From Bacteroidales bacterium (lineage in GTDB: Bacteria > Bacteroidota > Bacteroidia > Bacteroidales > F082): 64,000 bases of DNA. Of this stretch, positions 5,771 to 63,954 are shown one piece after another. The position numbers were made by a program, and so were the translations under genes. The stretch covers positions 16,019 to 80,018 of the forward strand of contig JAFGYB010000006.1 of the NCBI GenBank assembly GCA_016936355.1, in the 5' to 3' direction. Position 1 is the stretch's first letter. Each line of letters opens with the position of its first letter. The notes under the pieces were generated by a model. The model was not told the DNA's origin and did not search any database. It saw nothing but the letters and a program-made list of their open reading frames with translations.

Positions 5771-8491
5771 TTATTCCATATGAAATCCCAGTGCAGGCCT
5801 GGATATTTTAGCCTGTGGTACAAACTCATTCACATCCGACAAAACAATTGTTCCAATCATTTCTGTGGTTCGTTCCTGCTTAGGGGTGTCTGCCATTCTG
5901 AGCTCATGATTGCGGATCACTTTTTCTACAATTTTTCGCATGGAACGCGCATTCCCGAAGAAAATATCTCTGTTTTTGTACAAATAGGCAATATATGTTT
6001 TCAGATGTTCTTCTGCATCCTTATTTAGTACCAGATTTTCCCTGTTGAAACTCGATTTCACAATGGTCCACAATTCGCTTTCCGTGAAATCATTGAAATG
6101 ATATTTATGATCAAAACGGGAATCCAGCCCGGGATTGGATTCCAGGAAATGCTGCATATTCTGGGTGTAACCCGCTACAATCACTCCGAAATTACGTCGC
6201 TGATCTTCCATCTCTTTGACCAGGGCCGCCACCGCTTTTTTTCCGAAATCATTGTTTTGCCCATCCGTCAGTGAATAGGCTTCATCAATAAACAATATTC
6301 CCCCCATGGCACTGGAAATTAAATCCTTGGTCTTCAGAGCCGTCTGTCCCACAAAACCTGCCACCATCGAACTTCCGTCGGCATCCACCAAATGACCCCG
6401 TTCAAGCAGTCCGAGTGCTTTGTATATTTTTCCCAGAATCCGGGCCACCGTTGTTTTTCCCGTTCCCGGATTTCCGGTAAATACACTGTGCATGGAAAAA
6501 GCCTTTAGTACGTCGCGGTTAATTTCCTTGTAATACCGCGTCAGACGCACCAGTTCGCTCACTTCCTGCTTGATATTTTTCAGTCCGGTCAGATTATTCA
6601 GTTCATTCAGCGAAGCCTTCAACAAATCTTCATCAATGCTCAGTTTCAGTTGTTTTTCAATGGCCGATTCGGCAATATCCTCAATATCTTCAGGCTGAAT
6701 CTCAGAAAGTATCTTTTTGGTCAAATGTTCCGAATCGTATTGTTTCACTACGCGAATCCCAAGGTTCATTTTGGCCTCATCAATCAGAGAGGTAGCAAAC
6801 CGGGCATTACCAAAGGTCCTGTCTCTTTTACGGTATGCATCGGTAACCAGTTTCAACAATCTTTCTTCCGCCTGAATGCTGAGTGTTACATCTTTTTTCT
6901 TTGCCGCATATCGGGCAATATCCAGCAATTCATCAGGTGTGTAATCTTCAAAATGAAAATGATGTTTGAACCGGGATTGCAGTCCGGGATTGGAGCCGAT
7001 CAGCTTTTCCATTTCCTTGGGATAGCCGGCTACCATAATGGCAATATCGCCGGGACCATCACTCATTTCGGTGATCAGCGTGGCAACGGCTTCTGGACCA
7101 AAATCACCCGAAGCCCCTTCTTTAAACAGCATGTATGCCTCGTCAATAAATAAGATGCCTCCCCGGGCTTTCTCAATGGCTTCTTTGGTATCTTTTCCCG
7201 TTTGCCGCACATAACCCGAAACCAGGTTATTGGCATCCACCACATGGACATGTCCCTTGGTCAGCAGTCCCATGGCATGAAAAATCTGCCCCAGCAGTTT
7301 TACCACTGTGGTTTTTCCCGTACCCGGATTTCCAGTAAATATGCTATGCAAACTGATTTTTTCCTCTTCCTGAAATCCCTGCGCTTCACGGTATTGCAGG
7401 AAACTCACATAGTCCACATATTCCCTGACTTTTTGTTTGATGTTATTTAAACCGATCAATCCATCCAGTTCGGACATGATTTCACTCAACGGACGGTCGT
7501 CAATTACAATTTCATCTTCCGGCTGACTTCCCGTATCCTGACCTTCGTCGGTCTTGTCTTCATCCGGTTTATCCGCTTCCTTTTTATCCAACATACCCTG
7601 CGAAACATGAGAAACATCATACCATTTACTGACTTCTTCATTCAGCAGCGCTTCATAATCGCTGATGCGTTCCACTTCCTTGTCACCAACAGAAAAGGGG
7701 ATCACTCCAACGGTTGTATCCATAAAAATGACTTCCAACCGATAATTATCCTGAATCCAGGTCCCTTTGGTTTCCGAACCCCAACCGGCAGTGACGGTAA
7801 ACGATTCTCCCGGTCCGATGGAAGGAGTAATATTGAGCATGGTATCGGCGACACCAACGGTTTGCCCGGTATCATCCACGAAACGGAAAAAGACTTCGCA
7901 AAGCCATTCTTCTTCAATCTGGTTGAGGAAGCGAAGTTCCCCCATGATATACCTTGTTTCTTTCGCATCGAAAGTCTTCAGGTATTTCCTTGACTTTTCA
8001 GGCAAATCATCTCCCGGAGCTTCATAAGTACGCAGACTGATGGCCTCAAAATAAGGGTTCTCTTCCTCAGTCACCCGGTTGTAATCTTCTATATAGAAAT
8101 CAGCGGTTCCCACTTCATCGCCATCAATACTGGCAATCCAGCGGTAGTGCCCCGGCTTCCAGAACTTGGCATATTCATCTTCGCCCCAGCCAAAGCTGTA
8201 GGTGATGATGTTGTCCTCCTTCGATACGGGGATTTCCTCCTCTTTGTTGCAGATTTCAACAGTTTTTTCGCGATTTACCTGATTGACAGCCCGGATACGG
8301 ATTTTAGCAGTCCAGTCCTCTTCATCGAAGAGCTTATTGTAAAAGGCCAGTTCGGCTCCCAGATAATTGATCTCGAACCGATCAAACACTTTCCTGAATT
8401 TCCGCTTGCTGCCCATGGCACGATCCCAGGCAAACGACTGCAGGCTTTTGAATTTGTAATTGGGGCCTCCTTTTGATTTTCCGAAAATCAT
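5771..8491 (-). CDS. Tandem AAA+ ATPase of the CbbX/SpoVK type with an internally duplicated N-terminal domain
   Basis: There are two Walker A motifs (FTGNPGTGKTTV twice), two Walker B motifs (GGILFIDEAY twice) and two GNAR motifs (FGNARFATSLIDEA, FGNARSMRKIVEKV), as in SpoVK/CbbX/EccA-type modules. An acidic linker (DKPDEDKTDEGQDTGSQPEDE) follows two similar ~110-aa N-terminal units. Confidence 0.8.
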   Translation of the reverse strand: MIFGKSKGGPNYKFKSLQSFAWDRAMGSKRKFRKVFDRFEINYLGAELAFYNKLFDEEDWTAKIRIRAVNQVNREKTVEICNKEEEIPVSKEDNIITYSFGWGEDEYAKFWKPGHYRWIASIDGDEVGTADFYIEDYNRVTEEENPYFEAISLRTYEAPGDDLPEKSRKYLKTFDAKETRYIMGELRFLNQIEEEWLCEVFFRFVDDTGQTVGVADTMLNITPSIGPGESFTVTAGWGSETKGTWIQDNYRLEVIFMDTTVGVIPFSVGDKEVERISDYEALLNEEVSKWYDVSHVSQGMLDKKEADKPDEDKTDEGQDTGSQPEDEIVIDDRPLSEIMSELDGLIGLNNIKQKVREYVDYVSFLQYREAQGFQEEEKISLHSIFTGNPGTGKTTVVKLLGQIFHAMGLLTKGHVHVVDANNLVSGYVRQTGKDTKEAIEKARGGILFIDEAYMLFKEGASGDFGPEAVATLITEMSDGPGDIAIMVAGYPKEMEKLIGSNPGLQSRFKHHFHFEDYTPDELLDIARYAAKKKDVTLSIQAEERLLKLVTDAYRKRDRTFGNARFATSLIDEAKMNLGIRVVKQYDSEHLTKKILSEIQPEDIEDIAESAIEKQLKLSIDEDLLKASLNELNNLTGLKNIKQEVSELVRLTRYYKEINRDVLKAFSMHSVFTGNPGTGKTTVARILGKIYKALGLLERGHLVDADGSSMVAGFVGQTALKTKDLISSAMGGILFIDEAYSLTDGQNNDFGKKAVAALVKEMEDQRRNFGVIVAGYTQNMQHFLESNPGLDSRFDHKYHFNDFTESELWTIVKSSFNRENLVLNKDAEEHLKTYIAYLYKNRDIFFGNARSMRKIVEKVIRNHELRMADTPKQERTTEMIGTIVLSDVNEFVPQAKISRPALGFHME

Positions 8492-8596
8492 AATCGTAAT
8501 ATTAAGTTTTGTTTCCGCTGCTTAAAATTACAAAAGTTGATTATTAATCGTGCTTTGAATCAGTCTAAATTAACTGATATTTAGCGAATAACGTCT

Positions 8597-9598
8597 TTAA
8601 AAAACAAACTTAAAAACGATCTGTTCGTGGTATTCCTCTCCCGGATGCAGCACCGCGTTAGGAAAGTTACTTTTGTTGGGGGCATCAGGAAAGTTTTGCG
8701 GTTCAAGGGCAATTCCCCCATAAGTCTGCAAGGGGTATCCTCCTTTTCCATTTTCCGTTCCGTCAAAATGCATACCGGCATAAACCTGAATGCCGGGTTG
8801 GGTAGTGTACACCTCCACCTTCCTGCCTAATTCGGGAACCGACAGAACAGCGGCTTTCACCAGGTCGTGTTCTTTTCTGCGGATCACCCAGTTGTGGTCG
8901 AGTCCACCCCGCAACAATATATCCGGATCGTCGCTTGCCACCACATCCATAATTTTCACAGGCTCACGCAAATCCATACTTGTTCCCGAAACCGGTTTCA
9001 ACTCTCCGGTAGGGATCGAAAATTTATTCAACGGAGTATAGTGATCCGCAAAAATCTGAAGAAAATGGTTTTGTACATTTCCTCCTCCCGGTCCGTTCAG
9101 ATTGAAATAAGGATGAGAGGTCAGGTTCACCACTGTGGTTTTGTCTGTATATGCCTTGAAATCAATTAAAAATTCATTGTTTTCATTCAGCGCATACAAC
9201 ACCTCCACCTGTAAGTTTCCGGGGTAGTTTTCGTCTCCGTCCTCACTCAACAAGGAAAGCTTATAAGCTGAAGTATAACCCGGAACCAAAGCCGGACTCA
9301 CCGCCCAGTCCTTGGTGTAGAAACCCTGAGCTCCGCCGTGCAGATGATTGGGTTCCTGATTTCGGTTCAATTGAATTTCGTGTCCGTCCAGCGTCAAAAT
9401 TCCGCCAGCAATCCGGTTGGCATATCGCCCCACCAAAGCCCCGAAAAACGGATCACCGTGCAGGAATTCCTGCACGGTGTCGTATCCGACAAAAACATCT
9501 GTCTTTCCATGTTCCGACGGAATCAGTGCAGAACACAATTTCCCGCCAAGGGACAGAAATGAAATCTCCATCCCGTTCTTATTAATTAAATGATGCAT
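8597..9598 (-). CDS. galM: Aldose 1-epimerase (galactose mutarotase)
   Basis: Motifs VGRYANRI, PNHLHGG, TSHPYFNL and GIALEPQNFPDAPN are characteristic of aldose 1-epimerases. Confidence 0.85.
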   Translation of the reverse strand: MHHLINKNGMEISFLSLGGKLCSALIPSEHGKTDVFVGYDTVQEFLHGDPFFGALVGRYANRIAGGILTLDGHEIQLNRNQEPNHLHGGAQGFYTKDWAVSPALVPGYTSAYKLSLLSEDGDENYPGNLQVEVLYALNENNEFLIDFKAYTDKTTVVNLTSHPYFNLNGPGGGNVQNHFLQIFADHYTPLNKFSIPTGELKPVSGTSMDLREPVKIMDVVASDDPDILLRGGLDHNWVIRRKEHDLVKAAVLSVPELGRKVEVYTTQPGIQVYAGMHFDGTENGKGGYPLQTYGGIALEPQNFPDAPNKSNFPNAVLHPGEEYHEQIVFKFVF

Positions 9599-9612
9599 GC
9601 TTTTTCTTGCCC

Positions 9613-11241
9613 CTACCAGAATACCGTATACAACACTACCAAAATGGTCATCAGTATATACGCACTGATGTTAAACCTGCGTTCCGTGATAAACGTTTCT
9701 CTGTACAGAGGGATGGCTTTGGGATTGGCATCTCCTTCAGCCGTGGTCAGAGATACACCCACAATAATCACCACGGTGATGAGGAGGGTATAGAGCATCT
9801 GATCAAGGAATGGCATGTCAATGGGCAGGAATTTCAATGCCAGAGCCACTGGTATGGAACTCAACACCCCGACAATAGCCCCTTTAACACTGGTTTTCTT
9901 CCAGAATAATCCCATGAGGAAGACAGCCAGAATTCCCGGGCTGACCAAACCGGTGTATTCCTGAATATACTGGAACATCTGTGGAATGGAACCCAGTGAC
10001 TTGGCAACGGAGGCTGCAATAATCAGGGCAACCAAAACAGACAAGCGACCTACCGATACCAATTGTTTGTTGGTGGCATTCTTATTGAAATACGGTTTGT
10101 AAATATCCATCGTAAAAATAGTGGAAGTTGAATTCAGCATGGATGCCAGTGAAGACACAATAGCGGCAGAAAGTGCAGCCACAACCAGTCCTTTCAATCC
10201 AACGGGGATAAATTTGGCGATCAGCCAGGGATAGGCTTTATCGTAAGTAACGGAACCATTGAGTCCTTCAAAAACGCCGCGTGCACCGTCTATGTTTTGT
10301 TGAAACATCACAAAAGCAATGATACCGGGAATCACGACGAGCAAAGGAATAATCAGCTTCAGGAAACCGGCAAAAGCCACCCCGCGCTGGGCTTCTTTCA
10401 ACGATTTGGCTGCCAGAGCACGCTGAATAATGTACTGGTTAAAACCCCAGTAGTACAGGTTGGCTACCCACATCCCGCCAATCAGCACCCCAATACCCGG
10501 CAGGTTTTTAAATTCGGGATTGGTGCTTTTCAGGATCATTTGAAATTTATCGGGAGCTTCATGATAAATGTAGGTAAAACCATGCAGTATGGAACCGTCT
10601 GGGCTGATATGAACCAAGGCAATAATGGTGGTGATCAATCCGCCGGTAACCAAAAGAACCACCTGGATTACATCGGTCCAGGCCACAGCCGAAAGACCGC
10701 CCCACAACGAATAAGCCGCAGCAAACAAGGCCAGACCAATAATGAAATACATGATGGTATCTCCGTTTCCGGTTCCAAGGATGGTATCCAAAGCCTGGGC
10801 ACCCAGATACAACACGGAAGTCAGGTTCACAAACAGAAACAATGCAATCCAGAAAACAGCCAGGATGGTTTTCAAAGTGGTGTTGAATCTTTTTTCAATG
10901 AATTCGGGAATGGTATACAGACCCTGTTTGATAAAAATCGGGAGGAAGTATTTTCCCACAATGATCAGGGTAATGGCTGCCATCCATTCGTAGGAAGCAA
11001 TGGCCAGCCCCACAGCAAAGCCCGATCCCGACATGCCAATGAATTGCTCGGCCGAAATATTAGCCGCAATCAGTGATGCGCCAATGGCCCACCAGGGCAA
11101 CGTCTTTCCGGCAAGGAAGTAATCTTCGGCGGTTTTTTCCTGCCCTTTTTTGGTGCGTGAAACGTACAATCCCACGGCAATGATCAACACTGCGTAGGCA
11201 GCAAAGATCAAATAATCTATAAAATCAAAATGACTGTTCAT
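9613..11241 (-). CDS. Sodium:solute symporter family sugar transporter (SGLT-like)
   Basis: It is a ~542-aa polytopic protein with typical SSS motifs (AEDYFLAGK..PWWAIGASLIAANISAEQFIGMSG, AVAWTDVIQ). It sits between galK and galM. Confidence 0.8.
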   Translation of the reverse strand: MNSHFDFIDYLIFAAYAVLIIAVGLYVSRTKKGQEKTAEDYFLAGKTLPWWAIGASLIAANISAEQFIGMSGSGFAVGLAIASYEWMAAITLIIVGKYFLPIFIKQGLYTIPEFIEKRFNTTLKTILAVFWIALFLFVNLTSVLYLGAQALDTILGTGNGDTIMYFIIGLALFAAAYSLWGGLSAVAWTDVIQVVLLVTGGLITTIIALVHISPDGSILHGFTYIYHEAPDKFQMILKSTNPEFKNLPGIGVLIGGMWVANLYYWGFNQYIIQRALAAKSLKEAQRGVAFAGFLKLIIPLLVVIPGIIAFVMFQQNIDGARGVFEGLNGSVTYDKAYPWLIAKFIPVGLKGLVVAALSAAIVSSLASMLNSTSTIFTMDIYKPYFNKNATNKQLVSVGRLSVLVALIIAASVAKSLGSIPQMFQYIQEYTGLVSPGILAVFLMGLFWKKTSVKGAIVGVLSSIPVALALKFLPIDMPFLDQMLYTLLITVVIIVGVSLTTAEGDANPKAIPLYRETFITERRFNISAYILMTILVVLYTVFW

Positions 11242-39860: not shown

Positions 39861-39934
39861 GGTCCGGTAGTTCAGTTGGTTAGAATACATGCCTGTCACG
39901 CATGGGGTCGCGGGTTCGAGTCCCGTCCGGACCG
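39861..39934 (+). tRNA. tRNA-Asp (anticodon GTC)
   Basis: I folded the cloverleaf by hand. The acceptor is GGTCCGG/CCGGACC, the anticodon stem is CATGC/GCATG with loop CTGTCAC, and the T-arm is GCGGG-TTCGAGT-CCCGT. The discriminator is G and no CCA is encoded. Confidence 0.9.
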
Positions 39935-39941
39935 CTTAAAA

Positions 39942-39967
39942 GGGAAGCATCATGCTTCCCTTTTTTT
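39942..39967 (+). terminator. Rho-independent terminator after tRNA-Asp
   Basis: The sequence is gggaagca-tca-tgcttccc followed by ttttttt. Confidence 0.8.
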
Positions 39968-40106
39968 GTTTGTGTAGAGCAGTGTTTTGATTCCCTCCCT
40001 TAAAGAAATCCCCCAAAAGTCTTCATTTTCTGTTATCTATCAAACATTTAATTTGTTTCTTATCAGAAAATTACTATCTTGGACAATCCAATTCTAACCT
40101 GCACAG

Positions 40107-42143
40107 ATGAAACAAACCTTACAAATTCACAAAACCATTTTTGTGGTTTTCTGTTCAGTCCTCTTTATCACCACGTTTTCCACGACACTCAGAGCTCAGG
40201 GATCCGATACTTTGAAGCCCAAAGATATTTTAAAAATGTCGTTTACTGATCTGATGAACCAACAGGTCATTACGGCCTCCAAAACAGAACAACAAATCAA
40301 AAATGTAGCAGCTACAGTTCAGGTTATTACGGCTGAAGAAATCAAGATCCGTGGTTATTTCACACTGGAAGATGCGCTGTCTGATTTACCGGGCATCCAG
40401 TTTCGAAACATTAACGGCTTCAACAGTTATGTATTTATGCGGGGCGCCACAAGTCAGAACAACCTGATCCTATTGCTGGTTGACGGCATTCAGATTAACG
40501 AACTGAATTCAGGCGGATTCTATGGCGGCGGACAGTTCAACCTGGCAGATGTTGCACGCATCGAAGTGGTGTATGGCCCGGCATCAGCCTTGTACGGAAC
40601 CAACGCCGTTTCGGGGATTATTAATATCATCACCAAAAAACCCAAGGGAAAGCATGACGGTCACGTGAGCCTGCTTGGCGGTACTTTCAACACCGGAGAC
40701 GGTAATTTCAGCCTGAGGAATTACAATGCAAAAAAGAAAACCGGATATTATGTTTCAGGAATGTACAAAACCTCCAACAAAGCGGATCTGAGAGGAGCAC
40801 AAGGGGACGATAACTGGACCGAACAAATGGAAAACTTTGAACATGACCTCTCCTTTTCTGCCAAAGTAGTTGTCAACAAACTGGAGATCGGAGCCGTATA
40901 TCAGGAGAAAAAATCGTCGAATACAACCTATTATAAATCCATCGGTGAACAATACCTTGACAGGAACTCGTTGTGGGACATTGCTTTTTTAAATACCTAC
41001 TTAAAATACCACACTTCCCTGGGTAAAAAATGGGAATTACATTCAACGCTGTACAACCGGAACGCCACAGTAAAACCCAACACCATTGACCATGTAAGCA
41101 AAGCCACCGATTCAACCGCCGGGGATCAGGTGGGCTTCTACCGCCCCAATCACCTGATCGGACTCGAAAACCAGATCAATTTCAAGGCTTCGAAAAGCCT
41201 CATGGTGGTTCTGGGAATCACAGGTGAAATAGAACAACTTTCCGAGGGGTTCTCGGTTACCCATAGTTATTCTGAATTGATCGCCCCTCCTCCACCGCCT
41301 AAACCCGACATGCTCCACAACCAGCTGCTTAGTTACTACGTACAGGCTGATTTTAACATCACAAAGGAGCTTTCGTTTATCGGTGGATTACGGCACGATT
41401 TTTCAAGCTATTACGGCAACGTTATCACACCCCGAACAGGCCTCCTGTTCAACAAAAATCAGTTTACCACCAAGTTGCTGTACAATACAGCGTTTAGGGC
41501 TCCCAAACCCTGGGACTACCACTACGGCATCGGTAATTCCATGTTACGGCCCGAAAAAATGAGATCTTTTGAGTTTGTCTTTTCCTATACGCTGAACAAC
41601 AAATTTTCGATGGGCACCTCTGTATACAACAACCTGATCCGGAACAAACTGACGCTGCAATCCAACGGCTCAAATTTCCAGTGGGTTAACAAAGACAGAC
41701 TGAATACTTTTGGAATAGAGATTTACGGAAAGTTCCTGTTGCAGAGAGTTCTGTTTTATGCCAATTATACCTACACCAACTCCTACGATCAGGATGGCAT
41801 TTCTATTCCTGAGATATCGGCGCAAACGGCCAATGCCGGAGCAACGTATTCATACAATACACATTTCAAAATCAACCTCCGCTCGCACTACATTGGCACA
41901 CGAACCAACCCATACGTCATCCCCAACACGGGGAACAACATCATAGGAGACGTACTCCTGTTCAGTGGAAGTATTTCCTATTTTGATTGGAATGGATTTG
42001 ATATCCAACTTAAAATCAATAATATTTTCAACACCAAATATTTTGATCCCTCGAACCTCATAATAGGAAGATACCGGCAACCTCAGCGCACGGTCACACT
42101 CAAAGTCACTTATAATTTTCACCACTTATTCTCAAAATCCTAA
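40107..42143 (+). CDS. TonB-dependent receptor (plug plus 22-strand barrel type; no STN signalling extension and no SusD partner)
   Basis: It has a signal peptide and plug motifs (VITASKTEQQIKNVAATVQVITAEEI, FMRGATSQNNLILLLVDGIQIN, IEVVYGPASALYGTNAVSGIINIITK). The C-terminal barrel has aromatic-rich strands (TVTLKVTYNF). Confidence 0.85.
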   Translation: MKQTLQIHKTIFVVFCSVLFITTFSTTLRAQGSDTLKPKDILKMSFTDLMNQQVITASKTEQQIKNVAATVQVITAEEIKIRGYFTLEDALSDLPGIQFRNINGFNSYVFMRGATSQNNLILLLVDGIQINELNSGGFYGGGQFNLADVARIEVVYGPASALYGTNAVSGIINIITKKPKGKHDGHVSLLGGTFNTGDGNFSLRNYNAKKKTGYYVSGMYKTSNKADLRGAQGDDNWTEQMENFEHDLSFSAKVVVNKLEIGAVYQEKKSSNTTYYKSIGEQYLDRNSLWDIAFLNTYLKYHTSLGKKWELHSTLYNRNATVKPNTIDHVSKATDSTAGDQVGFYRPNHLIGLENQINFKASKSLMVVLGITGEIEQLSEGFSVTHSYSELIAPPPPPKPDMLHNQLLSYYVQADFNITKELSFIGGLRHDFSSYYGNVITPRTGLLFNKNQFTTKLLYNTAFRAPKPWDYHYGIGNSMLRPEKMRSFEFVFSYTLNNKFSMGTSVYNNLIRNKLTLQSNGSNFQWVNKDRLNTFGIEIYGKFLLQRVLFYANYTYTNSYDQDGISIPEISAQTANAGATYSYNTHFKINLRSHYIGTRTNPYVIPNTGNNIIGDVLLFSGSISYFDWNGFDIQLKINNIFNTKYFDPSNLIIGRYRQPQRTVTLKVTYNFHHLFSKS

Positions 42144-42186
42144 CCGATGGGAAATGAAAAAATCAGTTTGAAATTCCGTTAAGAAG

Positions 42187-42747
42187 ATGGCAAAAAGCAT
42201 TCCAAATAGCTCAATAAAATTGTGGATCCTGATCGTTCTGTCAGTAGGAATCTTTTGGTCGAACAGGTTACCGGCTCAAAACAGGGAATCACTTCTGAAA
42301 GCCGGCTACATTGAAAAATTCACCCATTTTGTTGAATGGCCCGAGTTGCAACAAAAGAACGATTCGGTATTCAAAATCGTGGTTATGGGTGAAAACGGAC
42401 TGGGACAGGCTGTTAAGAAATTATTCAAAGGGATCAAAGTTAAGAACCGGAAAGTAGAAATTCAGTTTATCCATTCCGCAGATGAAATCAACCATGCTAT
42501 GATGCTGATAATTACGGGTGAACTTTCCAGAAATCAGCTGCAGGATGTCCTGACCTATACCAGGGGCAGGCAAATTCTTACCATCAGTGAAAGCAAAGGA
42601 TACGCCAAAAAAGGGATTATCATCAACATGTTTAAGGAAAACAACTACATCCGCTACGAGATCAACACCAGTACACTGGCCCAATCGGGTCTTAAAATAA
42701 ACAGTTTGCTTTTAAATTATGCAGTAATTGTTAAAACAGATGATTAG
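42187..42747 (+). CDS. YfiR-like periplasmic protein (DUF4154)
   Basis: It has a signal peptide and the hallmark LKAGYIEKFTHFVEWP motif. The ~186-aa length fits YfiR/DUF4154 proteins. Confidence 0.7.
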   Translation: MAKSIPNSSIKLWILIVLSVGIFWSNRLPAQNRESLLKAGYIEKFTHFVEWPELQQKNDSVFKIVVMGENGLGQAVKKLFKGIKVKNRKVEIQFIHSADEINHAMMLIITGELSRNQLQDVLTYTRGRQILTISESKGYAKKGIIINMFKENNYIRYEINTSTLAQSGLKINSLLLNYAVIVKTDD

Positions 42748-44599
42748 TTCAAAAATCTTACGGGATCTTTCCATTAAGAATAAAACCATCGCCATTGTAT
42801 TATTCGTGGTACTGATGGTGATATCCATCGGTTTTATCTATATGGGCATTCAGCACATATCCAAACTGAAATCCGATATTCAGTCCAGTTTGATACTGAA
42901 CGCCAAATTAATTGGAGACTACTGTGTGGTACCGCTGACCTTTGAAGATCATGAGCAGGCTACGGAGGTTTTATCGCGGTTGAAATTACTGAAATCCGTG
43001 GAAGAAGGGTTGCTTTATGATAAAAGCGGAACTGTTTTTGCCAGCTATCCCGATACACTCAGGGACCAGGTTATTCAGACTAAAAAGGAAGTCCATCTGG
43101 AAGATGGAAACTTTTATATACGAGAACCGGTCATTTTCCAGGGGGACACCTTGGGGCATTTAATTATCAAGGCCAACACACACGCGATCACCGACCGGAA
43201 GAAAGAGCTTTTATCCACAACTTCCGCCTTGCTTGTGTTGATGATTATTTTATCCTATTTCCTGGCCTCAGCAGCCCAAAAGTTAATCACCGATCCCATT
43301 CTGGAACTCTCCCGGTTAACTGCTACCATTTCCGAAAATCATGATTTTTCGGTCCGCCTCAAACCCCATGGTCAGGATGAAGTAGGGATGCTCTACCAAC
43401 AGTTTAACAATATGCTGGCCGAGCTTCAGAAATCACAGGCAGAACGGAACGAAGCCATCAAGGAAACCACATTCCTGGCCCATGTGTTCAGAAGCATCAA
43501 CGAAAATGTCACCATTACTGATTTAAACGACAAGATTATCTTTGTAAACCAATCGCTGCTGCACACCTATGGGTATACTGAAGAGGAGCTAATCGGTCAA
43601 CACATCAGCATATTGCGGGCAAAAGACAACCCTTCCAGCGTCATAGAGTCCATTTATCCCAATACCCTGAAAGGCGGATGGGAGGGAGAACTGATCAACA
43701 TTAGAAAAGACGGAAGTGCATTTCCCGTTTCGCTCAGAACCACCATCATATACGATACAGAAAAAAAACCGGTTGCTCTGGTGGGCGTCAGCAGTGACAT
43801 TACCAAACAAAAACACGAGCAAGAAGAACTCAGGCTTTACCGCAACCACCTGGAGGATCTGGTCAAACAACGAACACTGGAATTGGAAAGGGAGAAGGAA
43901 AAAGCCCAGTCGGCGGACCGACTGAAATCGTCCTTTCTGGCCACCATGTCGCATGAACTCCGGACACCGCTCAATTCCATTATCGGATTCTCGGGCATTT
44001 TGCTTCAGGGACGTCCGGGAGCGTTAAACGACGAGCAAAAGAAACAACTGGGAATGTTACAGAATAGTGCCCGGCATCTCCTCTCCCTGATCAACGATGT
44101 ATTGGACATCTCAAAAATTGAGGCGGGTCAGCTAAAGGTTAACATCAATCAATTTGACCTTCCTGAGGTGATCCATCATGTGGTGGAAATCAACCAACCA
44201 CTGGCTGATAAAAAAAATCTGGAGATCAAGGTTTCTTTGGACCCTCAGGTAGGAGAAATTGTAAGCGACAAACAACGGATTCAACAAGTATTGATCAACC
44301 TGGTCAACAATGCCATCAAATTCACCGATGAAGGTTCGGTAACCATCAATTGTTACAAAAGCGATGATCACATAAAAATCAAAATAATCGATACCGGAAT
44401 TGGAATTGAGCAGGATAAACTGTCTTTGCTTTTTAAACCATTTACCCAGGTTGATACGGGACTCTCCCGAAAACACGAAGGAACAGGTTTGGGATTGTCT
44501 ATCTGCAAAAAGTTGCTGGACATTCTCAACGGAAGAATTCATGTAGAATCAGAATATAACAATGGGAGTACATTTACTGTAATACTCCCTGTACAATAA
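42740..44599 (+). CDS. Sensor histidine kinase: 2-TM periplasmic sensor (CHASE8-like), HAMP, PAS, HisKA, HATPase
   Basis: The ATG at 42740 overlaps the yfiR-like stop by 8 nt. TM1 is IAIVLFVVLMVISIGFIYMGI and TM2 is ALLVLMIILSYFLASAA. It has the H-box SFLATMSHELRTPLNSI, the N-box NLVNNAIKFT, G1 DTGIGI and G2 GTGLGLSICK. Confidence 0.85.
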   Translation: MISSKILRDLSIKNKTIAIVLFVVLMVISIGFIYMGIQHISKLKSDIQSSLILNAKLIGDYCVVPLTFEDHEQATEVLSRLKLLKSVEEGLLYDKSGTVFASYPDTLRDQVIQTKKEVHLEDGNFYIREPVIFQGDTLGHLIIKANTHAITDRKKELLSTTSALLVLMIILSYFLASAAQKLITDPILELSRLTATISENHDFSVRLKPHGQDEVGMLYQQFNNMLAELQKSQAERNEAIKETTFLAHVFRSINENVTITDLNDKIIFVNQSLLHTYGYTEEELIGQHISILRAKDNPSSVIESIYPNTLKGGWEGELINIRKDGSAFPVSLRTTIIYDTEKKPVALVGVSSDITKQKHEQEELRLYRNHLEDLVKQRTLELEREKEKAQSADRLKSSFLATMSHELRTPLNSIIGFSGILLQGRPGALNDEQKKQLGMLQNSARHLLSLINDVLDISKIEAGQLKVNINQFDLPEVIHHVVEINQPLADKKNLEIKVSLDPQVGEIVSDKQRIQQVLINLVNNAIKFTDEGSVTINCYKSDDHIKIKIIDTGIGIEQDKLSLLFKPFTQVDTGLSRKHEGTGLGLSICKKLLDILNGRIHVESEYNNGSTFTVILPVQ

Positions 44600-44610
44600 A
44601 TTCACACCAT

Positions 44611-44973
44611 ATGAAGCAAAAAACACTCATTATTGAAGACAACCTGCAAAACATGTACATGCTGACTTATTTACTGGAAGGTAATAATTATGAGGTTTTT
44701 CAGGCATTTACCGGACAGGAAGGGATTGCCAAGGCAAAAGAACTCAACCCCGACATCATCTTGCTTGACATTCAGTTACCGGAAATGGACGGCTATTCTG
44801 TTGCCCGTGCACTACGAAAAATTAAAGAACTTAAGGAAACCCCGATCATTGCTGTTACTTCCTATGCCATGTCAGGTGACAGAGAAAAGGCTTACGCTTC
44901 AGGAGCTACCGGGTACATAGAAAAACCGATTGATCCCGACACATTTATCACACAATTACAAGCTTTTATTTAA
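44611..44973 (+). CDS. Stand-alone receiver (CheY-like) response regulator
   Basis: It has IIEDN, the phospho-acceptor context DIILLDIQLPEMDG, VTSYA and the EKPI Lys. There is no output domain. Confidence 0.85.
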   Translation: MKQKTLIIEDNLQNMYMLTYLLEGNNYEVFQAFTGQEGIAKAKELNPDIILLDIQLPEMDGYSVARALRKIKELKETPIIAVTSYAMSGDREKAYASGATGYIEKPIDPDTFITQLQAFI

Positions 44974-44991: not shown

Positions 44992-46710
44992 ATGCATAAA
45001 ATTCTTATAGTAGATGACAAAGAAGAGAACATCTATCTCCTTCAATCGATCCTGGAACTAAACAACTACCAAACTATCAGCGCCAGAAACGGCAAAGAGG
45101 CACTGGAGCAGATGAAAGACGAAGTTCCTGACCTTATTATTTCCGATATCCTCATGCCGATTATGGATGGATTTACACTGTGTGTAAAATGCAAAACCGA
45201 CCCAAGGCTCAGCAAGGTACCGTTCTTTTTTTACACTGCAACCTACACGGATTCACGCGATGAAGAATATGCGCTTGGGCTGGGTGCCGACCGCTTCATA
45301 CTCAAGCCCCAGGAACCCGAAGATTTTCTCAGGATTATTGATGATTTTGATGCAGAAAATGCACGAACATTATCCCCCGGCAAAATACACGATGACTCTG
45401 AAACGACTGTTCTGAAAGAATACAACGAAGTACTGATCCGAAAGATTGAAGATAAAATGCTGCAGACTGAAAAAGCAGAAAAGGAATTAAGACTCTATGC
45501 CCAACAACTGGAGAATGAAATTAAGGAGCGAAAAAAACAGGATGCAAAGTTGAAAGCAGCCCTGGAAAAAGCACAGGAATCTGATCGGTTAAAATCGTCG
45601 TTTCTGGCCAACTTAAGTCATGAGATCAGAACTCCCATGAACGGCATTATGGGATTCATCGAGCTACTGGATGAGCCGTTTATCGACTCAGAAACCCAAC
45701 ACATCTACATGACCATGATCAAGAAGAGCGCAGACCGGATGCTGAACACCATTACGAATATTGTCAACATCTCAAAAATCGATTCCGGTCAGATGGAACT
45801 GCACTTAACGGATATAAACCTGAATGAGGAAATGGATTTTCTTTTCAACTTGTTTGATGCACAAGCAAGACAGGAAGGGATTCTTCTATCCCATAATAAT
45901 GGATTACCAGATGAACAATCCATGATCCAAACCGATCACGAAAAATTCATCGGCATCATGAGTAACCTCATTAACAATGCCATTAAATTTACTAATGAGG
46001 GAACCATCGATTTTGGATATACTCAAAAGGGTGATGTGCTCGAGTTTTACGTTCAAGATACCGGCATTGGCATCCGGGAGGACAAAAAGGAAGTCATCTT
46101 TGAACGCTTCAGGCAGGGAGACGATTCCCTGACACGTCCTTATGAAGGATCAGGCCTAGGACTGTCCATCTCAAAAAATTATGTTGAAATTATGGGGGGC
46201 ACACTGGGATTTGAAAGCACACACAATAATCCGGAAGGTAAAAACGGTACCCGGTTTTATTTTCAATTGCCCTTTTATCCTGCGGGACGAACAAACGAAG
46301 TACATCACCAGCCGGCTGATCCATTGAAACCGAACAAAAAAAACAAGAAATTAAAAACTCTCATTGTGGAAGACGATGTTATTTCAGGGAAACTGTTAGA
46401 AATCAGATTAAGCCCTATCGCCTCTGACATCTTACAAGCAAAGAACGGAAAAGAGGCCATCAGTACCTGTAAAAACCACTCGGATATCGATCTGGTTTTC
46501 ATGGACATCAAGCTTCCGGACATGACAGGATATGAAGTAACCCGTCAGATAAGAAAATTTAATAAGAACCTACTGATCGTGGCACAAACTGCCTTTGCCC
46601 TGGAAGGTGACCGCGACAAAGCGTTGGAAGCCGGGTGCAATGATTATATTACCAAGCCCATAGAACCCGATAAATTTAATCTGATTCTGAAAAAATATGA
46701 TCTGATTTAA
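44992..46710 (+). CDS. Cytoplasmic hybrid histidine kinase (REC-HisKA-HATPase-REC)
   Basis: The N-terminal REC has DLIISDILMPIMDG. It has the H-box SFLANLSHEIRTPMNGI, the N-box NLINNAIKFT, G boxes DTGIGI and GSGLGLSISK, and a C-terminal REC (DLVFMDIKLPDMTG). No TM segment is present. Confidence 0.85.
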   Translation: MHKILIVDDKEENIYLLQSILELNNYQTISARNGKEALEQMKDEVPDLIISDILMPIMDGFTLCVKCKTDPRLSKVPFFFYTATYTDSRDEEYALGLGADRFILKPQEPEDFLRIIDDFDAENARTLSPGKIHDDSETTVLKEYNEVLIRKIEDKMLQTEKAEKELRLYAQQLENEIKERKKQDAKLKAALEKAQESDRLKSSFLANLSHEIRTPMNGIMGFIELLDEPFIDSETQHIYMTMIKKSADRMLNTITNIVNISKIDSGQMELHLTDINLNEEMDFLFNLFDAQARQEGILLSHNNGLPDEQSMIQTDHEKFIGIMSNLINNAIKFTNEGTIDFGYTQKGDVLEFYVQDTGIGIREDKKEVIFERFRQGDDSLTRPYEGSGLGLSISKNYVEIMGGTLGFESTHNNPEGKNGTRFYFQLPFYPAGRTNEVHHQPADPLKPNKKNKKLKTLIVEDDVISGKLLEIRLSPIASDILQAKNGKEAISTCKNHSDIDLVFMDIKLPDMTGYEVTRQIRKFNKNLLIVAQTAFALEGDRDKALEAGCNDYITKPIEPDKFNLILKKYDLI

Positions 46711-59495: not shown

Positions 59496-61807
59496 ATGAA
59501 TCAAGATAAAATCATACAGATTCTTGTCGTGGGGGATCGTGAATTACCAGAACACCTGACAACTGTTTTGAATGATACTATCGATCATTACGAGGTTCAA
59601 AAAACAAGCAACAGACAAGAATTCATCCGGATGCTGGACCAGCAATTTTTTGATGTGATCATTGCCCGGGAGGAAAGCGATTCCATTGACATAGATAAAA
59701 TACTGAAATACAGGAATAAAAATTTCCCGTTGATCCCGTTTATCCTGTTAATGAAAGAGCAAAATGAGGACAGCCTGTTGAACTATCTGTTCAAGGGTGT
59801 GGATGAATGCATTTTTGAGGAAAAAGGCGACAACGTGGGCCTATCCATCAAAAAAGCAATGGCCCGAAAAAAGAGAGAAAAGGAAAAAGTTTATACCCAA
59901 CAAAGCCTCTTTTATGAAAAAGAGTTTTACCAAAATATTTTTGAGCTGAGTCCTATCGGCCTCATTCTGGAAGACAGCGAAGGAAATGTACTGGATGCCA
60001 ACGGAGTGATTCTGAAAATAACAGGATATACCAAAGAGGAACTGATCGGGAAAAACATCAGCATCTTTGCTCCCAAAGAGGACCATGAGAAAGTCAAAGA
60101 AGACATTAAAAGTATTCTGAATGGAAAGATCCTTCGTCAGGAGGTGATAAATGTTGACAAATCAGGCAAACACAGACACCATACAGAAATCATTGAAACC
60201 CGCATTCAGCTTCCCGATGGCTCCATGGGTATTTTATCCATCAACAACGACATCAGTCTGCAAAAGAAAGCTGAAGAGGACCTCTTGAAAAGCAATAAGA
60301 GCCTGGCACTGGCCCAAAAAATTGGGAAGATCGGAACCTGGGATTATGATTTGATGGATGACAAACTCTTTTGGTCTGACGAAGTGTTTCATCAGCTTGG
60401 TCTTGAACCCGGGAGTGTGATCCCTTCCCAAGAACTTTTCCTTTCCTTCGTTCACAAGGACGACAAAAAGAGAGTAAATGAAGCCATTCAAAACACTTTC
60501 GAGAAGGATGAAGCCTATGATTTAAACATCAATATGTTGCGCAGTGATGGAACTTCATGGATAAGCCATACGGTAGGTGCCCTGATCAAAAACGAAGCCG
60601 GAAAAGTTACCCATTTTCTAGGGATACAGCAAGACATTACCGACTATATCAAGATCACCAACGAATTGATCGAAGCCAAAGATAAAGCCGAAGAATCTAA
60701 CCGACTGAAATCGGAATTTTTGGCCAATCTTTCCCATGAAATCCGGACTCCGATGAATGGAATCATCGGTTTTTCAAGCCTGCTGGAACAGGAAGTATTG
60801 AATGATGAGGAAAGAAAAAACTTCTCACATATCATTATCAATAGCAGCAGACAGTTGTTGCGCATCATTGATGATATTCTGGAAATATCCAAATTACAAA
60901 CCAAACAAATTAAGATTCTGAAAGAGGAAGTCAACCTTTCGGATGTATTACTCGAGTTATTCAGCATATTTGATCTCAAGGCCAAACAAGCCGGTCTGCA
61001 CATGTATTTAAAGAATCAACTAAGCGAAGAAGAATACATGGTCAACACCGATGCCAGTAAATTAAAGAAGATACTCAGCAACCTCCTGGAGAACGCATTT
61101 AAATTCACCAAAGAAGGGCATATTGAACTGGGGTTAAAAAAGGAAAAAAATCTGTATGTATTTTGTGTAAAAGATACCGGATTGGGGATCAAAAAGGAAA
61201 TGCAGCAGATTATCTTTGAGAGGTTTTCACAGGAAGAAAAAGAAATCTCCCAAAAAAAAGGAGGTTTGGGTCTGGGGTGTCCATTGCTATGGAAAATGCC
61301 CAGCTACTGGGAGGAAATATTAGAGTAGTATCAGAAAAAGGTGAAGGTTCAACATTTTTTGTAGAAATCCCTATGGAAGAAACAGTGAACACAGAGGTAG
61401 TAACACAAACAGACAGGCAATTATCAGAGAACAGGCCGTTAATTCTTGTTGCTGAAGACGAAGAAGTCAATTATCAGTATATTGAGATCCTCTTGCGTAA
61501 ATTCCCAATACCGATTGACATTCATCATGTGATGAACGGACAGGAAGCTGTTACCTATTGTCAGAACGGGCATAAGGTGGATATGATCCTGATGGACATT
61601 AAAATGCCGGAAATGAATGGGATCGAAGCTACGAAACTCATCAGGGAAAAACATCCTCTTTTGCCGATCGTTGCTCAAACTGCTTATGCCCGTGTTGAAG
61701 ATAAAGAAGCTGCACTGGCTGCAGGTTGTAACGAATATCTGTCCAAGCCCTTCAGAAAAGATCACTTTTACGAAATGATGGCCCACTACCTGGCCCAATA
61801 CTTATAA
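59496..61807 (+). pseudogene. Hybrid sensor kinase (pseudo-REC, PAS, PAS, HisKA, HATPase, REC) interrupted by a -1 frameshift in a G run
   Basis: ORF 59496-61328 ends inside the G2 box (GGLGLG then out of frame). ORF 61277-61807 continues in another frame with VSIAMENAQLLGGNIRVVSEKGEGSTFF plus a receiver (MILMDIKMPEMNG). One extra G at 61274-61277 would give GGLGLGVSIAMENA. Confidence 0.75.
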
Positions 61808-62392
61808 TTCCTGATGGTATTCTTTTAGAAAAGCTACCAGCTTTTGAACAGCACGTCCCCGGTGACTGATGGAGTTTTTTAGTTCCATGGTCATTTCTGA
61901 GAATGTTTCATTGTATCCGTCAGGCATAAAAACCGGATCGTAACCAAAACCGTCGCTACCCCTGCGTTCAAAAATTATTTTCCCTTCAACCGTACCTTCA
62001 AAAAAATACTCCTTTCCTTCCAGCAATAAGGAAATAACTGTCTTAAACCGGGCACTCCGATGATTTGTATCACCCAGTTCCAGCAACAACTTCTCCACGT
62101 TTTGTTCGTAAGTAGCAGTTTCTCCGGCATACCGTGCCGAATACACACCGGGCGCTCCGTTCAGCGCATCCACTTCCAGTCCCGTATCGTCAGCAAAACA
62201 ATCCATCTGTAGCTTTTCTTTTACGTAACGCGACTTAATGGAAGCATTTTCAAAAAGCGTTTCACCCGTTTCCGGGATGTCTTCCTTGATTCCCATCTCA
62301 TCCAAAGAGACCACCTCATACAATCCGGATAAAATATTTTTCAGTTCAAGCAGCTTATGAGCATTATGAGTAGCAAAGATTATTTTATGCAT
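61802..62392 (-). CDS. rdgB: RdgB/HAM1 family non-canonical purine NTP pyrophosphatase
   Basis: It has IIFATHNAHKLLE, FADDTGLEVDALNGAPGVYSARY, FGYDPVF and SHRG motifs. I preferred the ATG at 62392 over the TTG at 62413. Confidence 0.85.
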   Translation of the reverse strand: MHKIIFATHNAHKLLELKNILSGLYEVVSLDEMGIKEDIPETGETLFENASIKSRYVKEKLQMDCFADDTGLEVDALNGAPGVYSARYAGETATYEQNVEKLLLELGDTNHRSARFKTVISLLLEGKEYFFEGTVEGKIIFERRGSDGFGYDPVFMPDGYNETFSEMTMELKNSISHRGRAVQKLVAFLKEYHQEL

Positions 62393-62413
62393 GGAAACAA
62401 AATTTTTCCGCAA

Positions 62414-62447
62414 AAATAAAAAAGCCCCTGCTTTAAAAACAGAGGCC
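62414..62447 (-). terminator. Probable rho-independent terminator after the DUF2202 gene
   Basis: The minus strand reads gcctctg-tttttaaag-caggggc followed by ttttttattttt. The stem has one G-U pair. Confidence 0.45.
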
Positions 62448-62464
62448 GGTGTTAAGTTTTATTT

Positions 62465-63109
62465 TTAATACAGGGCGCCACAGGGTTCGTGGCGCCTGTT
62501 GATGATGGCTGCATATTCCTCATCCGAAATATGCACTGGAATATAATTCACTCCGAATCTGTTCAGCTGAAAGGTAAAAGCCCTGAGGTGGTTTCGGGAA
62601 CCGCAGTTTAAAAAGGAAAATACGGCATAAATTTCTTTATTCTTTGTTCTGGCCATAAAATTTTGCAGATCATAGATATCCACATCTTCTATGGCTGCCC
62701 CCACCAGTAATGCATCGGTCAACGATTTTTTTCCTTTTTCCATTAAATCATCGTAAAGTTTCTGAATCTCCCGATTCCTAAAAACACCTCTTTCTGTGGA
62801 GGCAGGATCTGACAAGCCATTTGCTTCAATTATGCGCAGCACTTCATCCATATGTACCTGCTCACTGGAAGAAATATTGGCAAAAATATTGAGTCCGTAA
62901 AGTTCAGACAAACCAAGATATACGTCTCTTGCCATTTTCTCTTCTTCACGCATCTGCATCAAAGAAATTGAATCTTCTGCACTCAAAGGAAGACTACCCG
63001 ATTCGCCCGGGTTTATTTTGGCACTGGATGTGAAGAAAAATCCCGTTGCCAATAGAACAAACAATGCTCCCAAAAAAGTTGCCGGTTTTCTTTCTTTCAA
63101 CGATTTCAT
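62465..63109 (-). CDS. DUF2202 (ferritin-like) domain protein with a signal peptide
   Basis: It has a signal/anchor (FLGALFVLLATGFFFTSSA). The motif MREEEKMARDVYLGLSELYGLNIFANISSSEQVHMD is typical of DUF2202 four-helix-bundle proteins. Confidence 0.65.
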   Translation of the reverse strand: MKSLKERKPATFLGALFVLLATGFFFTSSAKINPGESGSLPLSAEDSISLMQMREEEKMARDVYLGLSELYGLNIFANISSSEQVHMDEVLRIIEANGLSDPASTERGVFRNREIQKLYDDLMEKGKKSLTDALLVGAAIEDVDIYDLQNFMARTKNKEIYAVFSFLNCGSRNHLRAFTFQLNRFGVNYIPVHISDEEYAAIINRRHEPCGALY

Positions 63110-63267
63110 AGTCTTAAAATGTTTGTATAAATTTCGTTATTATTCGTTCATCCCCCATCCCAAAATTACAACTAATAACCTTTTTAAGAGAATCTTAAGA
63201 AACTGTCGATTTCTTGATACAAGAAAAGCCGTTTTTTTGTATTTTCATGCAAAACAGAATATTACAG

Positions 63268-63954
63268 ATGAAACGGATACTTGTTATCGAGGATGAACCG
63301 GGAATCTCCGGGTTTTTAAAAGAAGGGCTGGAAGAAGAAGGTTTTCAAATAGATGTGGCCGAAGATGGAACAACGGGACTTCAGAAATTCAAAAACCATT
63401 CTTTTGACCTGATTCTGATGGACTGGATGCTGCCGGGAATGTCGGGAGTGGAAGTTACAGAACAAATAAGAAAGGTCAACGCCGATGTTCCCATCATTTT
63501 CCTGACAGCCAAAGATACGGTGCAGGACACCATATTGGGGTTGCGTTCGGGGGCCAACGATTATTTAAAAAAGCCATTCAGCTTTTCCGAGTTACTCGAA
63601 CGAATTAAAGTCCATTTCAGAAACGGTTCAAAAGACAAGAAAGTGATCACTTATGGGCCACTGAATCTCGATCCGGTTCAAAGAACAGTTACAAAAGAAG
63701 AATCCGTCATTACCCTTACACAAAAAGAATTTGACCTGTTGCATTTTTTAATGAAAAACATGAACAGTGTATGCACACGCAAAGAAATTCTCGATAAGGT
63801 GTGGGATATTCATTTTGAGTACAGTTCCGGGGTTATCGATGTTTACATCAATGCACTGAGAAAAAAATTCCAGCTCCCCAAAGAGTATAGTTTCATAGAA
63901 ACAGTATGGGGTATCGGATACATGATTAAAGAACACGAAACCGAACAAGCATGA
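63268..63954 (+). CDS. OmpR/PhoB-family response regulator
   Basis: The REC domain has ILVIEDEPGI, DLILMDWMLPGMSG and LTAKD. The winged-helix output has LTQKEFDLLHFLMKN and VWGIGY. Confidence 0.9.
   Translation: MKRILVIEDEPGISGFLKEGLEEEGFQIDVAEDGTTGLQKFKNHSFDLILMDWMLPGMSGVEVTEQIRKVNADVPIIFLTAKDTVQDTILGLRSGANDYLKKPFSFSELLERIKVHFRNGSKDKKVITYGPLNLDPVQRTVTKEESVITLTQKEFDLLHFLMKNMNSVCTRKEILDKVWDIHFEYSSGVIDVYINALRKKFQLPKEYSFIETVWGIGYMIKEHETEQA

Follow-up and report, generated by a model that had tools for sequence, protein, structure and literature searches.

How can the state of a receptor in the outer membrane be passed to a histidine kinase in the cytoplasmic membrane when the receptor shows no STN signalling domain? 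This question is raised by a gene cassette in a 64,000-nucleotide stretch of a Bacteroidales bacterium genome (GTDB family-level lineage F082; assembly GCA_016936355.1, contig JAFGYB010000006.1, positions 16,019 to 80,018 of the forward strand), which is referred to here as the window. Known routes of signalling by TonB-dependent receptors (TBDRs) run through an STN domain to an anti-sigma factor, or indirectly through periplasmic sensing of a substrate that the receptor has imported. The cassette in the window brings together a TBDR, a periplasmic protein resembling YfiR, a sensor histidine kinase with a CHASE8 domain, and further phosphorelay proteins. An initial annotation, made from the sequence before any database search, had read the first three genes as a YfiBNR-type module rewired to an outer-membrane transporter and a phosphorelay. 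On the evidence presented below, we think it probable that the cassette is a five-gene operon for trans-envelope sensing, in which the YfiR-like protein gates the CHASE8 kinase and the TBDR provides the input. It represents, within Bacteroidota, a widespread kind of TBDR/YfiR-like/CHASE8-kinase arrangement, one that has been recognised by database curators and was foreshadowed in 2012.

What does the unit consist of? The three open reading frames (ORFs) that were placed at 40107-44599 are present as described, but the unit is longer than that span. The genes for a single-domain regulator, made of a REC domain only, and for a hybrid histidine kinase belong to the same cassette, as they are co-directional, tightly spaced (the REC-only gene starts 11 nt after the kinase gene, and the hybrid kinase gene 18 nt further on) and conserved together in related loci. 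The features are listed here in window coordinates, with protein lengths in amino acids (aa).

39861..39964, + strand: upstream boundary, with tRNA-Asp at 39861-39935 (ARAGORN) and then a terminator-like hairpin at 39938-39964
40107..42143, + strand: TBDR gene, 678 aa; signal peptide, Plug (65-171) and barrel
42187..42747, + strand: gene for the YfiR-like (DUF4154) periplasmic protein, 186 aa; signal peptide, no lipobox, no cysteines
42740..44599, + strand: sensor histidine kinase gene, 619 aa; CHASE8-HAMP-PAS-HisKA-HATPase
44611..44973, + strand: single-domain response regulator gene, REC only, 120 aa; Pfam Response_reg E=9.9e-26
44992..46710, + strand: hybrid histidine kinase gene, 572 aa; REC-HisKA-HATPase-REC (Pfam); last gene of the cassette

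Within the proposed scheme, the role of the YfiR-like protein as partner of the CHASE8 kinase is the best-supported step, because both sides of the YfiR-YfiN pair are present, adjacent, translationally coupled and conserved on the relevant elements. On the YfiR side, the assignment of the 186-aa protein to DUF4154 was confirmed with a profile hidden Markov model: PF13689 (DUF4154, 'YfiR/HmsC-like') matches residues 37-179 with 111.7 bits against a gathering threshold of 24.9 (E=3.9e-32). An AlphaFold (AF2) model built on 35 relatives reached a predicted local distance difference test score (pLDDT) of 86.7, and the top 15 matches of this model in a Foldseek search of the PDB were all Pseudomonas aeruginosa YfiR, with target template-modelling scores of 0.74-0.83, root-mean-square deviations of 2.5-3.4 Å and about 19% identity. 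By sequence the relationship to crystallised YfiR is distant (phmmer E=0.05; family profile E=1.4e-7). The best NCBIfam match of the protein is NF053591, at 100.1 bits and below the equivalog cutoff of 125, and all 38 of 38 diverse relatives score better on this model than on the canonical YfiR model. The residues that are invariant in the family alignment (K38, K44, F45, F48, W51, G68, G143, N147, E158, N160 and L175) include positions on helix 1 and the loop between helix 1 and strand 1 (K38, K44, F45, F48 and W51), on the last strand (E158 and N160) and on the C-terminal helices (L175). In YfiR, the same elements make up the conserved surface that binds YfiB and YfiN; YfiR folds like a single lobe of a periplasmic binding protein, and its last strand pairs with YfiB when the two bind (PMC4655355).

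Foldseek matches of the YfiR-like model also include substrate-binding proteins. The next-best structural match after YfiR was a 'single-domain substrate-binding protein' of Rhodothermus marinus (PDB 5z6v, 6k1x and 8wgl), and the authors of that work noted that such genes are often near chemoreceptor genes. Membership of 5z6v in the DUF4154 family was considered and ruled out, because the DUF4154 profile finds no sequence match to it.

On the YfiN side, the periplasmic domain of the kinase had been likened to the YfiN-type CHASE8 sensor, and profile searches agree with that assignment. Pfam CHASE8 (PF17152) matches residues 44-143 with 38.9 bits against a cutoff of 27 (E=1.1e-9), and HAMP is found at 182-230. 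Hydrophobic segments read from the sequence at about 16-37 and about 161-183 flank CHASE8, and the kinase has the order transmembrane segment 1 (TM1), periplasmic CHASE8 (about 38-160), TM2, HAMP, PAS, HisKA (H-box SHELRTP) and HATPase, so that Pfam places a HAMP-PAS-HisKA-HATPase output where a GGDEF domain would stand in YfiN, as the first reading had it. The best NCBIfam match of the N-terminal 239 aa is NF053592 (144.1 bits, below the domain cutoff of 194), and the second is the DgcN/YfiN model NF007423 with 74 bits. A BLASTP comparison with Escherichia coli DgcN, whose sequence was taken from the annotated K-12 yfiR-dgcN-yfiB locus, gave 21% identity over 233 aa (E=2e-8) in an alignment that spans TM1, CHASE8, TM2 and HAMP. 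Residue F68 of the kinase, in the stretch 'VVPLTF', is aligned with the Phe of the DgcN motif 'AAVVF', which has been proposed as the YfiR-binding site of YfiN (Malone et al. 2012, PMC3375315). The 'VVPLTF' stretch is conserved in the family and is recognisable as far as Sphingobium ('APLAFED'). Judged by these comparisons, the N-terminus of the kinase is homologous to YfiN/DgcN; a homologue search with this N-terminus returned two proteins only.

The two genes also overlap by 8 nt, just as had been read at the outset: the YfiR-like gene ends in ...ACA GAT GAT TAG and the ATG of the kinase gene is at 42740, with an alternative TTG start at 42728. Is this pairing, together with the TBDR gene in front of it, a peculiarity of one genome? 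To the contrary, the co-occurrence count that had been suggested for this locus shows the three-gene synteny to extend across phyla. Loci from a reference-genome scan, a metagenome scan, twelve exact-protein look-ups and a plasmid search were annotated with Pfam and with purpose-built profiles, and sequences more than 90% identical were removed, which left 44 YfiR-like genes. A TBDR gene lies directly upstream of the YfiR-like gene in 38 of the 43 evaluable loci, or in 40 of 43 if one intervening binding-protein gene is allowed; the loci without a TBDR upstream are one from Planctomycetota (L007) and two with tandem-domain DUF4154 genes (L051 and L056). A CHASE8/HAMP sensor follows directly downstream in 37/42, often with the same 8-nt overlap. 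All sensors with a visible C-terminus are histidine kinases, and no GGDEF domain was detected in any related locus with the GGDEF domain of E. coli DgcN as query, in line with the initial annotation of the output. Likewise, no YfiB was found in the TBDR's place in any of the cassettes examined. The relatives come from Bacteroidota, Ignavibacteriota and Alphaproteobacteria, including metagenome-assembled genomes of Bacteroidales, Prolixibacteraceae and Ignavibacteriales as well as Sphingobium. Since the genes on either side vary among the loci, the conserved unit is the cassette itself. A profile search places at least 1,366 clusters (50% identity) in the clade at E<=1e-30; with E<=1e-3 it returns 24,094.

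The later part of the cassette is conserved too, with the REC-only gene in the same place in most related loci and a second kinase in the next place, and two types can be told apart. In type A, to which the window belongs, the kinase is followed by a REC-only protein and a REC-(PAS)-HisKA-HATPase(-REC) protein. In type B, a hybrid CHASE8 kinase of about 1,000-1,130 aa is followed by a REC-HisKA-HATPase protein and then by a REC-SpoIIE protein (PP2C phosphatase), which suggests a relay output of the partner-switching type; in L001, L009, L017 and L026 this REC-SpoIIE regulator is the third gene after the YfiR-like gene. Other loci depart further from the pattern. For example, L025 (2367-11999), and also L024, carries two TBDR/YfiR-like modules in tandem; in L025 the first module is followed by a cytoplasmic PAS-HisKA_3 kinase, a REC-GerE (LuxR-type) regulator and a REC protein, and the second by a CHASE8-HAMP sensor. 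In L050 (3566-9489) and L052 (3554-9504) the order is TBDR, Peripla_BP_6 binding protein, DUF4154 protein and CHASE8-HAMP-HisKA-HATPase-REC kinase, with an OmpA-family gene slightly upstream in both. In L049, the public gene call at 7540-9060 omits the CHASE8-HAMP part of the sensor after the YfiR-like gene, which a purpose-built profile detects with 255 bits, and the GAF-PAS kinase called at 9060-11012 may be the continuation of that sensor. In addition, there are many proteins of about 340-390 aa with two tandem DUF4154 domains (P0096-P0129 and others), reminiscent of two-lobed binding proteins. Two examples of such genes, L051 3702-4742 and L056 1352-2488, have no recognisable TBDR upstream; the one in L056 precedes a CHASE8 kinase, and the one in L051 follows an 803-aa protein without a Pfam match.

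What kind of receptor, then, stands at the head of the cassette? The 678-aa protein has the plug (Pfam Plug, E=1e-23), the beta-barrel (TonB_dep_Rec_b-barrel, E=3.3e-25) and the N-terminal TonB-box-like motif of a TonB-dependent receptor, and no STN domain was reported in it by the Pfam scan, which returned Plug and barrel only and so bears out what had been said of this protein. Only about 20 residues separate the signal peptide from the putative TonB-box-like motif 'QQVITAS', which was found by inspecting the alignment by eye and which we take to stand at the position of 'DTLVVTA' in BtuB. The mature N-terminus (Q..DTL...DIL.MS..DLMN..V..ASK) is strongly conserved in 22 orthologues and lies about 20 aa upstream of the TonB-box-like V-I-T-A-S. 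Distant YfiR-linked TBDRs, including that of Sphingobium, have a similar acidic or helical N-terminal segment and a TonB-box-like strand. Sequence matches of the receptor in the PDB (CirA and BtuB) are confined to the plug. Its best NCBIfam match is the generic TIGR01779 with 140 bits, and NF053590, the TOL_0244 model, comes second with 123.2 bits against a cutoff of 645; the latter model aligns to YfiR-linked TBDRs mainly from model position 1 through the plug. That these receptors make up one clear family was ruled out, as the distant ones match NF053590 weakly, mainly over the N-terminus and plug, beside generic TBDR models.

A TBDR/DUF4154 pair is also found with no sensor adjacent, in L047 (4751-7540) and L048 (2862-5651), where the TBDR has 747 aa and the next gene, on the opposite strand, encodes a phosphofructokinase. 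The link of the YfiR-like protein to the TBDR is therefore independent of the kinase. A functional tie between the two is supported by their synteny, which is tighter than the synteny with the kinase.

How much of this arrangement has been described before? The initial annotation presented it as a rewired YfiBNR-type module; the trio is real, but its novelty was overstated, since kinase-output modules were included in a 2012 survey (PMC3375315) and the trio is already covered by NCBIfam models. In their in-silico survey, Malone et al. (2012, PLoS Pathog) found distant yfiR-yfiN pairs, mostly without yfiB, whose outputs were histidine-kinase, HPT, methyl-accepting chemotaxis protein and GGDEF-EAL domains, and proposed an ancient 'YfiR-YfiN[PAS/HAMP] core' with conserved binding residues, Rhodothermus being among the species compared (PMC3375315). 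The word 'TonB' occurs 0 times in that paper, whereas the window cassette has a TBDR as its outer-membrane component. The arrangement with a TBDR is represented in NCBIfam release 20 by three consecutive models, NF053590 ('TOL_0244 family TonB-dependent receptor'), NF053591 ('TOL_0243 family YfiR-like periplasmic protein') and NF053592 ('sensor histidine kinase, YfiR-like protein-associated'). The window shares the gene order of this trio, and its proteins have NF053591 and NF053592 as best and NF053590 as second-best matches, but they score under all three cutoffs (123 vs 645, 100 vs 125 and 144 vs 194 for NF053590, NF053591 and NF053592, respectively). These scores mark the window cassette as a divergent Bacteroidota version, and its proteins form a separate Bacteroidota/Ignavibacteriota lineage.

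Closer to the models is a trio on plasmid pSRL1 of Sphingobium indicum B90A (SIDU_RS18035-18045), with the same order of TBDR, YfiR-like protein and CHASE8 kinase and with overlapping genes. SIDU_RS18035 passes NF053590 (666 bits, cutoff 645) and SIDU_RS18040 passes NF053591 (140 bits, cutoff 125), and the third gene, which overlaps SIDU_RS18040, encodes a CHASE8-HisKA-HATPase-REC protein. In contrast to this trio, the window kinase is not a hybrid, and a REC-only protein and a hybrid kinase come after it. Directly upstream of the plasmid trio (L054, 1305-4804) and on the same strand are genes for a KaiC-like ATPase and a PAS-HisKA-HATPase-REC hybrid kinase. As for the namesake of the receptor model, the one experimental statement found is that TOL_0244 reached a sevenfold higher abundance in Thalassolituus oleivorans on the n-C28 alkane, which led its authors to suggest a role in alkane uptake (PMC6304351). 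Following TOL_0244 further pointed to Alcanivorax OmpS, a TBDR reportedly required for alkane detection, which stands as no more than a lead. The initial annotation knew of no experimental characterisation of the arrangement; this agrees with our literature searches, in which no experimental study treating the trio as a signalling system came up, within a coverage that excluded most subscription journals.

The cassette can be compared with two groups of better-known systems. With YfiBNR (TpbB/AwsXRO) of P. aeruginosa and E. coli it shares a DUF4154 gene that directly precedes and overlaps a gene for a two-TM CHASE8-HAMP sensor, the YfiR fold, the Phe of the 'AAVVF' stretch and an outer-membrane protein in the same operon. 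It differs in that the outer-membrane partner is an upstream TBDR of the 22-strand type, whereas in YfiBNR it is the downstream OmpA-like lipoprotein YfiB; in that the output is PAS-HisKA/HATPase with a phosphorelay and not a GGDEF diguanylate cyclase; and in that the YfiR-like protein has no cysteines and scores below the canonical YfiR cutoff. No YfiB homologue was found in the window by tblastn of E. coli YfiB against its whole length (best E 0.044 over 21 aa, elsewhere). In the second group, which includes FecA/FecR/FecI-type signalling, PfeA-PfeSR and PirA-PirSR, a TBDR is genetically coupled to signal transduction that reports its substrate. Unlike the FecA type, the window receptor has no reported STN domain and the cassette has no gene for an extracytoplasmic function (ECF) sigma factor or anti-sigma factor; its neighbours are a tRNA and a ComEC-like gene upstream and kinases downstream. 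The difference from PfeSR is that a YfiR-like gene stands between the receptor and kinase genes and that there is no DNA-binding regulator.

Is the cassette expressed as one unit? Upstream, the tRNA-Asp (anticodon GTC) and the hairpin are placed between the ComEC-like gene and the cassette, and a terminator scan rates the hairpin, with its 12-bp stem and T-run, as strongly terminator-like. A promoter of the cassette's own would have to lie in 39965-40106. A sigma-70 promoter scan, which gave fewer sites than shuffled controls, carries no information for a genome of the Bacteroidota type. Downstream, the genes past 46710 are on the opposite strand. The window sequence is present in a freshwater metagenome run, and in a metatranscriptome from the same study short contigs with 99-100% identity cover 42122-42317 (the junction of the TBDR and YfiR-like genes), 44528-44690 (the junction of the kinase and REC genes) and 46208-46358 (inside the hybrid kinase gene). 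These contigs fit co-transcription of the cassette, although the evidence is thin. In the DNA run the read depth on the tRNA-Asp was about 17,794, as expected for a sequence common to many genomes. One contig of the DNA run X1 joins 42363 to 43795, omitting 1431 nt; since the shorter side has only 21 nt, the join is probably an assembly artefact or comes from a related strain. Further two-component genes lie at 59496-63954 of the window, namely a 610-aa kinase, a short HisKA/REC ORF at 61277-61807 and a 246-aa REC protein, all recognised with purpose-built profiles only.

Taken together, how might such a cassette work? In the scheme that we favour, the TBDR would bind, and most likely import, a ligand. 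The YfiR-like protein would be a soluble periplasmic partner of the kinase, docking on CHASE8 as YfiR does on YfiN and holding the kinase in one signalling state, and it would be moved off or onto the kinase either by the ligand that the TBDR brings in or by the receptor directly. The kinase would phosphorylate the REC-only regulator, which would in turn feed the REC-HisKA-HATPase-REC hybrid kinase. Pfam finds no DNA-binding or enzymatic output domain in the cassette, so the final target would lie outside it. In this scheme the protein-protein contacts, the direction in which the kinase is regulated, the ligand and the sequence of phosphotransfer steps are all inferred. That the YfiR-like protein regulates the kinase through CHASE8 is, by homology, well supported; what suggests that the status of the TBDR may be relayed through the YfiR-like protein is gene order and analogy. 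Between import followed by periplasmic sensing and direct contact with the TBDR, import-and-sense is slightly favoured. Counted in favour of ligand sensing are the single-lobe binding-protein fold of YfiR, the variant cassettes with a Peripla_BP_6 protein (L050 and L052) and the common tandem DUF4154 proteins.

Could the receptor signal directly instead? In that case the TBDR would replace YfiB, and ligand at the cell surface would free the N-terminal segment of about 20 aa before the TonB box, which would capture or release the YfiR-like protein and so switch the kinase, and the ligand need not enter the periplasm. This is possible, and several observations speak for it: a TBDR occupies the position of the outer-membrane partner in 40/43 loci and the window has no YfiB homologue; the mature N-terminus of the receptor is conserved in the 22 orthologues, with similar segments in distant YfiR-linked TBDRs including that of Sphingobium; the TOL_0244 model aligns to such receptors mainly from position 1 through the plug; the TBDR/DUF4154 pair exists without an adjacent sensor; and an exposed peptide could imitate the strand pairing of YfiB with the last YfiR strand. 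However, models of other TBDR families also align from their first positions, and the binding-protein gene between the TBDR and YfiR-like genes in L050 and L052 fits import-and-sense better, so that we regard direct signalling as the less probable course. More tentative still is a general form of the idea, in which a TBDR with a soluble YfiR-like adaptor would make up a third, widespread route of TonB-dependent cell-surface signalling without STN or anti-sigma factor, found in Bacteroidota, Ignavibacteriota and Proteobacteria, with a short N-terminal extension capturing or releasing an adaptor that gates a CHASE8 kinase.

Two further explanations take the signal away from the transported ligand. 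The YfiR-like protein may mainly serve the TBDR, for example by periplasmic binding and hand-off of substrate, while the neighbouring kinases respond to a different signal and do no more than control transporter expression. The TBDR/DUF4154 pairs without a nearby sensor (L047/L048) would suit such an accessory, as would the single-lobe binding-protein fold of YfiR and the resemblance of tandem DUF4154 proteins to two-lobed binding proteins. It is nevertheless unlikely, as the adjoining kinase is specifically of the CHASE8/YfiN type in 37/42 loci, is often translationally coupled and conserves the predicted YfiR-binding stretch, which would be unexpected for an unrelated regulator, and as the cassette has neither an inner-membrane transporter gene nor a DNA-binding regulator for the TBDR gene. 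Alternatively, the cassette could report envelope or redox stress, with the TBDR serving as an outer-membrane anchor point only; the analogy is with YfiBNR, in which YfiB has been proposed to transduce envelope stress (PMC4655355, PMC3375315). Here the odds seem poorer again: the redox cysteine pairs of YfiR are absent from the cysteine-free window protein, no peptidoglycan-binding OmpA-like partner was found in the window, and a complete TBDR with plug and TonB-box-like motif has been conserved, which points to a working transporter.

Trans-envelope sensing through the YfiR-like protein and the CHASE8 kinase remains the reading that we prefer, and several points weigh against it. The YfiR-like protein scores 38.6 bits on the canonical YfiR model NF053586, against a cutoff of 85, and lacks the four conserved cysteines of YfiR, which form the redox-sensitive pairs Cys71-Cys110 and Cys145-Cys152 in strain PAO1 (PMC4655355); regulatory details of YfiR such as redox control are therefore not transferable. 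An AlphaFold model of the kinase N-terminus, based on a three-sequence alignment, had a mean pLDDT of 52.5, was unusable and was set aside. The family matches of the TBDR are generic and point to no particular ligand. Transcript support consists of a few short contigs, for which DNA carry-over is possible. Finally, the loci were found through their resemblance to the window's YfiR-like protein; the synteny figures therefore describe its clade and not all 24,094 DUF4154 clusters.

If the preferred reading is true, outer-membrane uptake and cytoplasmic signalling would have a further link, in the form of a YfiR-type adaptor placed between TBDR and histidine kinase, and the field of YfiR biology would be extended beyond cyclic di-GMP and beyond YfiB. 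The case is of moderate interest, and would be of far greater interest should the receptor be shown to signal directly to the YfiR-like protein. The pSRL1 locus of Sphingobium indicum and the TOL_0244 locus of Thalassolituus are in culturable organisms, which makes the question directly testable. Environmental Bacteroidota and related phyla commonly carry the module, and it is also present in culturable Proteobacteria, so it probably controls a frequent response to a transported compound.

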